A stretch of 48,714 nucleotides of DNA, taken from the IMG/VR virus record IMGVR_UViG_3300021255_001652, positions 1 to 48,714 of that record; one strand, 5' to 3'. The stretch is from a virus. The number at the start of each line of letters is the position of its first letter. Within the stretch, counting starts at the first letter, position 1. Below the pieces are notes generated by a model. It was not told the origin of the DNA and did no database searches. It saw only the letters and a program-made list of their open reading frames with translations. Made by a program: the position numbers and the translations under genes. Positions 44,573 to 45,322 of this stretch are shown here, in pieces.

Positions 44573-45322
44573 ATGAATAATTTTACTATATATATGCACA
44601 AAAATAAAATTAATAATAAAGTATATATAGGACAGACTTCTCAAAACCCTTTAAAAAGATGGGATAATGGGAGAGGATATGTCACTAGTCCAAAATTTTA
44701 TAAAGCCATTTAGAAATATGGTTGGGATAATTTTGAACATATAATTTTATATACAAATTTAACACTAGATGAGGCTAACTTAAAAGAACAAGAGCTAATA
44801 TCTAAATATCATTCTACTGAAGATAATTTTGGTTATAATATTGCTTCAGGTGGGAAAAATTTTCATCATAGTGAAGAAACTAAACAAAAAATTGGTAAAG
44901 CTAATAGTAAATCTTTAAAAGGAAAACATTGGTCAAAAGAACAACATGAACTAATGTCAAAAATGTTTTCTGGTGTAGGAAATCCTTTTTATGGAAAGCA
45001 TCATACAGAAAAAACTAAACAATTAATTTCTCAAAATCGTAAAGGAAAAGTTGCTGGTAAAAATCATCCTATGTATGGAAAACATCATAATGAAGATAGT
45101 TTACAAAAAATATCTCAACATAGACAAAGCAAAGGTGGAAAACAAGTTATTTGTTTAAACACTGGAGAAATTTTTCCAACTATGATGGATGCAGCAAGAT
45201 GGTGTGGATTATCAAACTCTTCTTCAATAGGTCAAGTTTGTAATCATACTGGAAAACAAAAAACTGCTGGAAAACATCCTATAACACAAGAAAAATTACA
45301 ATGGGAGTTTTATAATGAATAA
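44573..45322 (+). CDS. free-standing GIY-YIG homing endonuclease with NUMOD3-type repeats; 1 in-frame TAG
   Basis: IYMHKNKINNKVYIGQT ... KFYKAI(TAG)KYGWDNFEHIIL; repeated GKHHTEKTKQLIS / GKHHNEDSLQKIS; ATG 44573 in frame with ORF-track 44954..45322; overlaps gyrB start. Confidence 0.75.

Follow-up and report, generated by a model that had tools for sequence, protein, structure and literature searches.

The stretch analysed, here called the window, comprises positions 1 to 48,714 of IMG/VR virus record IMGVR_UViG_3300021255_001652 (48,714 nucleotides (nt), G+C 31%), and the element of interest is a homing endonuclease gene (HEG) of the GIY-YIG/NUMOD3 type, termed HEG1, which lies between the genes for RNase H and a GyrB-like topoisomerase (gyrB) and carries one in-frame TAG codon. 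The comparisons below indicate that HEG1 is a real, selfish and probably active homing endonuclease gene, borne on a mobile cassette that supplies gyrB with a new start, in a phage in which TAG is read as sense and may stand for Glu.

Organization of the Locus

HEG1 occupies positions 44573..45322 of the plus strand, as do all features below unless stated otherwise, with 249 codons followed by TAA. Its single in-frame TAG is codon 47 (nt 44711-44713) in the context FYKAI*KYGWDNF, the asterisk standing for TAG. The Shine-Dalgarno sequence GGAGG (44560..44564) is placed 8 nt ahead of the ATG at 44573 and is kept in the related contigs L001 and L004; an earlier in-frame ATG at 44558 overlaps GGAGG and is not used as a start in HEG1 homologs. 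To the left, the RNase H gene (43917..44432; PF00075, 98.2 bits) is free of TAG and 94% identical to that of contigs L005-L007. To the right, the first part of the GyrB-like topoisomerase gene (45315..46837; Pfam DNA_gyraseB, Toprim and HATPase_c) is also TAG-free, and its Shine-Dalgarno sequence GGGAG (45303..45307) is embedded in the last HEG1 codons (QWEF), 7 nt ahead of the ATG at 45315 and again kept in L001 and L004. HEG1 is located outside any host open reading frame (ORF), between the RNase H stop and the gyrB start, and its own Shine-Dalgarno sequence and ATG mark it as free-standing, with no intron or intein context. An earlier note on this DNA had described a free-standing GIY-YIG/NUMOD3 gene between rnhA and gyrB that encodes a 249-aa protein with a single TAG and overlaps the gyrB start by 8 nt; translation, the Pfam matches and the neighboring genes bear this out, the overlap being 45315-45322. 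An antisense ORF at 44682..45146 was rejected as a gene, being without a start codon, needing seven TAGs to be read through and encoding an F/L/Y-rich mirror sequence.

Domain Organization and Predicted Fold of HEG1

The N-terminal catalytic domain (residues 4-81, 44582..44815) matches Pfam GIY-YIG (PF01541) with 26.7 bits against a curated cut-off of 22.6, and the match spans both sides of TAG47. The first motif is TIY instead of GIY, and residues Y18, G20, R29, E72 and N89 are invariant across 28 homologs, with N89 placed just past the Pfam match; a catalytic function is expected for R29, E72 and N89. The NUMOD3 repeat region that follows (residues ~96-185, 44858..45127; PF07460, 80 bits) is composed of about four helical units, which in the model described below correspond to helices 101-116, 122-132, 146-156 and 174-184. 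The description of NUMOD3 as duplicated in the earlier note agrees with the two Pfam stretches but undercounts the helical units, and the GKHH-x-E-x-KQ-x-IS repeats it reported are present (YGKHHTEKTKQLIS and YGKHHNEDSLQKIS), although the pattern as written lacks one residue between E and KQ. The C-terminal region (45140..45310, containing GEIFPTMMDAARWCGL) has no Pfam match at E<=0.01 and is assigned as a helix-turn-helix DNA-binding domain from a Foldseek match to the corresponding domain of I-TevI.

The structural model is the AlphaFold model of P0001, a database protein 95% identical to HEG1, with a mean predicted local distance difference test score (pLDDT) of 82.8 and values of 85-91 in the C-terminal domain. 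The top Foldseek match of this model is the I-TevI catalytic domain (PDB code 1mk0, E 1.5e-4, template-modeling score on the target 0.73), followed by the I-TevI DNA-binding domain (1i3j_A) with a probability of 0.97 but a weak E value of 0.028. By sequence, a PDB search with HEG1 gives a marginal match to I-TevI only (E 0.011), whereas PHROG 314, annotated as homing endonuclease, matches residues 1-230 at 3.7e-43. A protein database search yields 2841 homologs, of which the best 120 are full length, the closest being P0001 (95% identity) and P0002 (87%). By domain content and modeled fold HEG1 is an I-TevI/Seg-type GIY-YIG homing endonuclease, with a cleavage specificity that is a prediction.

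TAG47 aligns by sequence with Asn50 of I-TevI in the helix ...SFNKHG, a site that varies within an otherwise conserved catalytic-domain helix, and residue 47 is not a catalytic residue. The statement that the TAG lies inside the catalytic motif was thus overstated: the codon does stand for the x of AI-x-KYG, and this helix belongs to the catalytic domain, but the site is variable and non-catalytic.

Conservation and Selection across the TAG Codon

TAG47 is kept in four contigs (L001-L004) at 87-95% protein identity, with two TAGs in L004 in addition to that at codon 47, and in all four the 249 codons are free of TAA, TGA and frameshifts. In the comparison of the window, L001 and L004, the 202 codons past the TAG (codons 48-249) have a ratio of nonsynonymous to synonymous substitution rates (dN/dS) of 0.10-0.12 at a dS of 0.23-0.58; the 46 codons before it have the same dN/dS, and the value for the whole gene is 0.09-0.13. 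Because the Pfam and fold matches span TAG47, the TAG is kept in relatives and the downstream dN/dS is low, codon 47 is a sense codon, and the substitution pattern indicates a protein that is not truncated and on which purifying selection acts. The condition under which the earlier note would have withdrawn its reading, that the N-terminal 46 codons and the downstream ORF are unrelated fragments, is excluded by the Pfam match across the TAG and by the equal dN/dS on its two sides.

HEG1 on a Mobile Cassette in the gyrB 5′ Region

Comparison of 80 related gyrB loci shows a presence/absence polymorphism of HEG1 of the kind that the earlier note had proposed to look for. The closest relatives, L005-L007 (RNase H 94%, gyrB 92% identity), have no HEG1 and a gap of ~45 nt between RNase H and gyrB; the gap is 41-53 nt in 14 close relatives compared with 882-921 nt in HEG1 carriers. 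The identity profile along the locus changes sharply. The left flank (43917-44464) is 96-100% identical to the HEG-less L005 and 64-92% identical to the HEG1-carrying L001, L001-like sequence (92-98% identity) then extends from ~44465 through the initial ~70 nt of gyrB, and gyrB nt 525-1500 are again L005-like (96-99% identity). A cassette at 44465..45385, whose right boundary is approximate, can be delimited from this profile and consists of a remnant, the HEG1 upstream region, the HEG1 ORF and a replacement of the first ~70 nt of gyrB. Every homolog of more than 60% identity for which DNA was examined sits directly upstream of gyrB. The comparison identifies HEG1 as mobile and the window as a mosaic, with a cassette of ~0.9 kb set in a backbone of the HEG-less type.

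The remnant (44477..44517, GATAAA...AGTATTGAA...TTTGGACAAAGTCTT) aligns with the gyrB 5′ end of L005 and is interpreted as the decayed remnant of the displaced original gyrB start. It also aligns with a longer remnant in L004 (ATGGTAGATAAACATTTATATGATGAAACTAGTATAGAGTCATTATCGCCTTTGGACAAAGACTTTTAA), where an ATG and the 18 gyrB-like codons behind it run into a frameshift and then a stop; the window and L001 have a remnant that is ~29 nt shorter and has lost the ATG. At 5860-5930 of L004, upstream of HEG1, the displaced gyrB start forms an apparently intact mini-ORF (MVDKHLYDETSIESLSPLDKDF, followed by a stop), which represents the remnant before the decay that it has undergone in the window. As the gyrB 5′ duplicate decays to the left of HEG1, the entry point of the cassette is placed ~70 nt into gyrB, between ...FTRL and RP.

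The gyrB sequence next to this junction shows a systematic difference, the L005-type allele being ...GAAAGTTTAAGTCCTCTTGAATTTACAAGACTTCGTCC... and that of the window ...GAATCACTTGACCCATTACAATTTACAAGACTTCGTCC.... The SPLE allele is found in 0/7 distinct HEG1 carriers and in 45/61 HEG-less sequences (p = 2.5e-4, uncorrected for phylogeny), and codons 18-21 of the window gyrB form the DPLQ allele, which is linked to HEG1. Such a split of alleles at the junction is what would be expected of a target site and a variant that resists cleavage, the cleavage itself being inferred. Two points weigh against this assignment: D-type alleles are also present in some HEG-less genomes, and the target is deduced solely from where the junction lies and from the association with alleles, whose strength shared ancestry could inflate.

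The gap between RNase H and gyrB is an insertion hot spot that is occupied in other relatives as well (L010 2811-3506, L084 2288-3085, L027 3642-4880, L022 3892-4266 and L008 3893-4084). Its cargo comprises a different GIY-YIG gene (27% identity, three TAGs, a weak match to the I-TevI DNA-binding domain), a 265-aa ORF with four TAGs and no Pfam match, a xanthine/uracil permease (PF00860, 297 bits) and small ORFs of 61-129 aa. Among GenBank phages (50,697 records) megablast finds only a 53-nt match, and tblastn identities do not exceed 34% for gyrB and 39% for HEG1, with no close DNA or protein relative; the best matches of HEG1 in this set come from Lactobacillus phage Ld17/LL-Ku (39%) and from endonucleases of Staphylococcus phages (35%).

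Group I introns are preceded by an exon that ends in T and themselves end in G. The gyrB gene of the window is interrupted by an intron-like insertion of 1056 nt (46838..47893) in the Toprim motif, between IIIMSDADV and DGAHI, and here a T at 46837 can close the upstream exon and a G at 47893 the insert. The insertion is clean relative to L001 and is absent from L001 and many relatives. It contains a second GIY-YIG ORF with four TAGs, termed HEG2 (47052..47762; Pfam GIY-YIG, 38 bits), and is followed by the second part of the GyrB-like gene (47894..48302; PF00986, 66 bits), which is collinear with L001. Rfam detects no intron, tRNA or other family in the whole window at the gathering threshold or in 44400-48400 at E<=1, the only match, mir-166, being taken as chance. 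HEG2 and HEG1 are 24% identical, and the similarity is restricted to the nuclease domain; the claim that two different HEGs, both recoded, are associated with one topoisomerase gene stands, and two unrelated nuclease genes have colonized it.

Two alternatives would deny that HEG1 is an intact, free-standing gene. Under the standard code the frame breaks at codon 47, and the 48.7-kb window contains no tRNA and so no CUA suppressor, a point against read-through; HEG1 might then be dead, with TAG as a stop and the 203-codon downstream ORF as an untranslated relic. This is very improbable in the light of the dN/dS past TAG47, the uninterrupted 249 codons in four contigs and the invariant catalytic and DNA-binding residues, and because the rest of the window is unreadable unless TAG is sense. 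In the other alternative an intron occupies the gyrB 5′ region, with the upstream remnant as exon 1 and HEG1 inside the intron, an arrangement suggested by the ATG and 18 gyrB-like codons that precede the cassette in L004 and by the intron-like insertion elsewhere in the same gene. The remnant of the window and L001 has, however, lost the ATG and ~29 nt, the downstream gyrB copy has its own Shine-Dalgarno sequence and ATG with a conserved N terminus in all carriers, and there is no Rfam intron match, so that we give an intron here hardly any credence.

Distribution of TAG in the Window

The reading frames show clearly that the window derives from a TAG-recoded phage. When TAG is taken as sense, fragments merge into ORFs of 2909 and 1610 codons and into an endolysin with seven TAGs, and no in-frame TAA or TGA is present in the genes counted. 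The codon is unevenly distributed. The ten early-type genes around HEG1 (phosphoesterases, RNA ligase, kinase, RNase H and both gyrB parts) have no TAG in 3085 codons (0 per 1000), whereas the tail genes have 62 in 6985 (8.9 per 1000) and the endolysin 7 in 585 (12 per 1000). HEG1, with 1 in 249 (4.0 per 1000), and HEG2, with 4 in 236 (16.9 per 1000), differ as a pair from their ten early neighbors (5 TAGs in 485 codons against 0/3085; Fisher p = 4.5e-5). Across the related contigs the densities per 1000 codons are 0.09 for gyrB, 0.63 for RNase H, 5.5 for the HEG1 family, 6.7 for the HEG2 family and 10.9 for the endolysin. As an observation apart, L119/L060 has two TAGs in the ORF for the topoisomerase A subunit, an early gene that is conserved; they fall in alignment columns 95 and 105, and one replaces a Gly found without exception in 56/56 sequences. 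The TAG profile of that contig fits neither Gln nor Glu.

Amino Acid Assigned to TAG

The earlier note had proposed site 47 as a direct readout of what TAG encodes, and this proved misleading, since the Gln residues of homologs are often TAG codons translated with code 15 and the site tolerates both Gln and Leu. Database proteins of such phages are pre-translated with code 15, and protein-level comparisons therefore tacitly assume that TAG is Gln; the protein-level count at site 47 (Leu 69, Gln 47) was dropped because the closest Gln residues are such TAGs. At the codon level, 70 homologs have Gln 57 times, Leu 12 times and Lys once, with genuine CAA/CAG in the majority of distant homologs and TTA in those orthologs without TAG that are nearest to the window. 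The conserved early genes gyrB, topoisomerase A subunit and ligase have no in-gene TAG and so provide no readout, and a test on strictly conserved columns of the early-region loci was set aside because it had too few columns and was noisy through spurious ORFs.

The meaning of TAG was therefore addressed outside the HEG family with 64 late-gene loci gathered with a tail protein of the window. In column likelihoods calculated per locus, the window and 20 other loci are best explained with TAG as Glu, the difference between the log-likelihoods for Gln and Glu being -20 for the window and -40 to -81 in relatives, and eight other loci are best explained with Gln (+7 to +21). The tail-protein identity to the window is 46-89% in the Glu set and 38-59% in the Gln set. 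Codons opposite TAG, counted in close pairwise alignments of at least 70% identity, are in the Gln set CAA 36 times (enriched x27) and CAG 21 times (x87), with 75% Gln codons overall, and in the set of the window GAA 101 (x7.3), GAG 31 (x12.5), CAA 31 (x3.6) and CAG 4 (x3.8), with 49% Glu and 13% Gln codons. When each alignment column with a consensus of at least 60% is counted once, the set of the window has TAG in 9/11 Glu-consensus and 0/4 Gln-consensus columns and the other set in 0/11 and 4/4, respectively (Fisher p = 0.0014). These p-values are optimistic, as the sequences are related, and one of the two alignments merges repetitive tail proteins. Opposite the 17 tail-gene TAG sites of the window itself, the clade has a Glu codon in 83 instances and a Gln codon in 26, and the endolysins of relatives lean toward Glu likewise. 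The alignment of TAG with Gln that is expected under code 15 is thus seen in the sister relatives but not in the clade of the window.

Orthologs of HEG1 at the same locus carry from 0 to 18 TAGs. The TAGs of L086, L088, L089 and L153 fall at Glu-conserved positions of the HEG1 family; in L153 a TAG occupies the putative catalytic Glu72, which is otherwise Glu in 71/72 sequences, and in L086 and L088 TAGs are present at further near-invariant Glu positions. The ORFs themselves (L086 3196-3960, L153 ~2904-3600, L088 4031-4675) contain 9-18 TAGs, up to 7% of codons, and no TAA or TGA, and one TAG of L086 is at an otherwise invariant Ile.

On this evidence we lean toward TAG being Glu in the clade of the window and Gln in sister relatives at comparable distance, with HEG1 codon 47 read as AI-E-KYG. 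Some results weigh against Glu. The homologs of HEG1 never have Glu at site 47, which fits Gln better, and the sole suppressor tRNA found in a relative is Gln-like. This tRNA is located in the same RNase H-gyrB gap of L077 (4277-4352; gyrB 72% identical), has a CUA anticodon, an A1·A72 mismatch, G73 and an encoded CCA, and is 78% identical to the Escherichia coli tRNA-Gln sequence used for comparison and at most 67% identical to any other tRNA compared. A search of viral contigs with its anticodon arm returns 69 unrelated contigs, mostly with other suppressor tRNAs and none from the clade of the window, and the late-region loci contain no CUA suppressor tRNA. Suppressor-type tRNAs with CUA and UUA anticodons are also present in a 14-tRNA array of L100 (2021-2094 and 3731-3806), a more distant contig with a HEG1 homolog.

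Many Gram-positive bacteria have no glutaminyl-tRNA synthetase (GlnRS) and form Gln-tRNA through a non-discriminating glutamyl-tRNA synthetase (GluRS) and the GatCAB amidotransferase. A speculative route to Glu is that the host, which is probably Gram-positive judging by the endolysin domains, may lack GlnRS; a CUA suppressor charged by GluRS and not amidated by GatCAB would then insert Glu or a Glu/Gln mixture. The papers searched contain no description of a natural TAG to Glu code in phages or bacteria. HEG1 is ordinary in kind, and the possible reassignment of TAG to Glu, suggested by these alignments, is the unexpected result, unproven but one that would be new. If TAG is Glu, the window represents a new natural variant of the genetic code, the late proteins of these phages all differ from their present predictions, and the relation between the aminoacylation pathway of the host and the code choice of the phage becomes directly testable.

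Proposed Homing and Translational Gating

A promoter-like site, TTGCTA-17-TGtTATAAT (44426..44454; 10/12 with TG in a consensus scan), is located between the RNase H gene and the cassette, and the sequence through 44464, including this site, is 100% identical to the HEG-less L005. From its position it is presumed to be the original gyrB promoter, now upstream of the cassette, from which HEG1 would be transcribed together with gyrB. The account that joins these observations, and in which we have good confidence, is of an intact I-TevI-type endonuclease on a mobile gyrB-5′ cassette that spreads by homing, with the TAG as a gate and more likely read as Glu. The cassette of ~0.9 kb inserted ~70 nt into the GyrB-like gene, supplying it with a new ribosome-binding site, an ATG and the first ~23 codons that overlap the HEG1 stop by 8 nt, while the original gyrB 5′ end was displaced upstream and decays there. 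By analogy with T4 Seg/Mob enzymes and I-TevI, HEG1 would most likely cut HEG-less gyrB alleles near codons 17-25 (ESLSPLEFTRL), and repair from a HEG1-carrying co-infecting genome would copy the cassette into the cut allele, the variant allele (ESLD...) shielding the carriers from cleavage.

The location of the cassette between an early-type promoter and gyrB, among early genes that are free of TAG, is the reason for which a gate is proposed. As long as TAG is unread, translation of HEG1 would end after 46 codons, short of the catalytic Glu72 and Asn89, and gyrB could still initiate from its own Shine-Dalgarno sequence; with the onset of TAG decoding, the full nuclease would be produced and could attack HEG-less co-infecting genomes. 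The TAG thus probably keeps HEG1 untranslated until the TAG-decoding state has been set up, a timing that is deduced from the arrangement of the sequence. Gating of endonuclease translation by a reassigned stop codon has been proposed before (Borges et al., bioRxiv 10.1101/2021.08.26.457843). Against the gate it must be noted that a single TAG among 249 codons would be a weak barrier and may have arisen by drift, and that promoter-like sites are not above chance in this AT-rich region (14 compared with 13.6 expected), which leaves the co-transcription of HEG1 and gyrB as inferred.

Both the identity of the amino acid and the gate have rival explanations. Published surveys and proteomics report TAG to Gln only, and if TAG is Gln here, the Glu-like pattern would be an artefact of new TAGs that arise from GAG at tolerant acidic surface sites. 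Codon 47 of HEG1, which faces Gln in 57/70 homologs, and the L077 suppressor, nearest to E. coli tRNA-Gln, agree with this. It is harder to reconcile with the close pairs of the clade of the window, where Glu prevails over Gln opposite TAG and GAG is the most enriched codon, with the 75% Gln codons that the same pairwise method yields in sister relatives, with the exact reversal of the column counts between the two sets, and with TAG at the putative catalytic Glu72 in L153 and at near-invariant Glu sites in L086 and L088; we regard Gln as a serious possibility of less than even standing. The TAG in HEG1 might likewise be non-regulatory, the product of drift in a gene that is not needed before the decoding switch. 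A single TAG in HEG1, a share (1/249) below the late-gene level and a TAG load in same-site orthologs that ranges from 0 (L085) to 18 (L086), as if loosely constrained, are what drift would leave. TAG47 is nevertheless kept across 5-13% protein divergence with dS up to 0.58, both HEGs and the HEGs of relatives have TAG at late-gene density next to TAG-free genes, and the same bias has been shown statistically for an intron endonuclease in TGA-recoded phages (Borges et al.). For this gene alone drift is a serious possibility of less than even standing, and a TAG gate on HEG1 is preferred.

Relation to Known Systems

HEG1 resembles I-TevI, the endonuclease of the phage T4 td intron (PDB codes 1mk0/1ln0 and 1i3j) and its best and only significant PDB match, in the order of an N-terminal GIY-YIG domain, an extended linker and a C-terminal helix-turn-helix. 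The sequence similarity over the catalytic domain is only ~28%, and I-TevI has Asn where HEG1 has TAG. In contrast to the intron-encoded I-TevI, HEG1 is free-standing, and its linker is formed by NUMOD3 helices; no zinc finger was seen, and no search for one was made. In being a free-standing GIY-YIG gene at conserved DNA-metabolism genes, polymorphic in occurrence and with co-converted flanks, HEG1 is like SegA-SegG of the T-even phages and their intronless homing, a likeness drawn from what is established about the Seg enzymes, and no Seg protein is among the close homologs of HEG1. Unlike the Seg genes, the HEG1 cassette substitutes a start of its own for that of the target gene, and one of its codons is a reassigned stop.

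MobA of T4 is an HNH enzyme, and its cassette splits the gene mid-way, with a 50-nt translational bypass. The MobA/gene 60 cassette, located in the gene for the large subunit of topoisomerase II, was reportedly described by Bonocora and colleagues in 2011. Both this and the HEG1 cassette are free-standing HEG cassettes in a phage type II topoisomerase gene in which extra sequence keeps the host gene expressed; HEG1, by contrast, is of the GIY-YIG type, is located at the 5′ end and brings a new Shine-Dalgarno sequence, ATG and N terminus in place of a bypass. HEG1 is a well-resolved natural case of a free-standing HEG cassette that invades the 5′ end of an essential gene and brings a replacement start.

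In the TGA-recoded Agate phages, a group I intron endonuclease in an early gene is preferentially recoded, and late production of the nuclease has been proposed (bioRxiv 10.1101/2021.08.26.457843). The situation of HEG1 is similar in that a homing endonuclease amid early genes carries a reassigned stop codon. It differs in that the Agate case concerns TGA to Trp and an intron-encoded gene, whereas the window has TAG, both a free-standing and an intron-like copy, and an amino acid that may be Glu; the idea of selfish nucleases that are silent early would be extended from TGA and introns to TAG and a free-standing gene. With the code 15 phages (crAss-like, Lak and phAss-1; TAG to Gln) the window shares TAG in late/lytic genes and none in early genes, the size class (related contigs of 90-146 kb) and a very long tape-measure-like ORF as in phAss-1. 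Unlike in those phages, TAG in its clade aligns with Glu and not with Gln.

Other Features of the Window

Upstream of the RNase H gene, a strong terminator-like hairpin (43804-43841) with a 17-bp stem is followed by a T-run, and directly after it, just upstream of RNase H, there is a promoter-like site with TG (43855-43883, 11/12). On the minus strand, a 333-codon ORF (10199-11200) with one TAG has tyrosine-recombinase-like motifs by eye (..HRFRRT..GH..Y); avoidance of the reassigned codon has been reported for integrases of temperate phages with a recoded stop (Borges et al., bioRxiv 10.1101/2021.08.26.457843). An 830-codon TAG-free ORF on the plus strand (34847-37339), with no PHROG match, is unusual in its use of CAG over CAA (25 compared with 2) and has a long charged helical C-terminal part.

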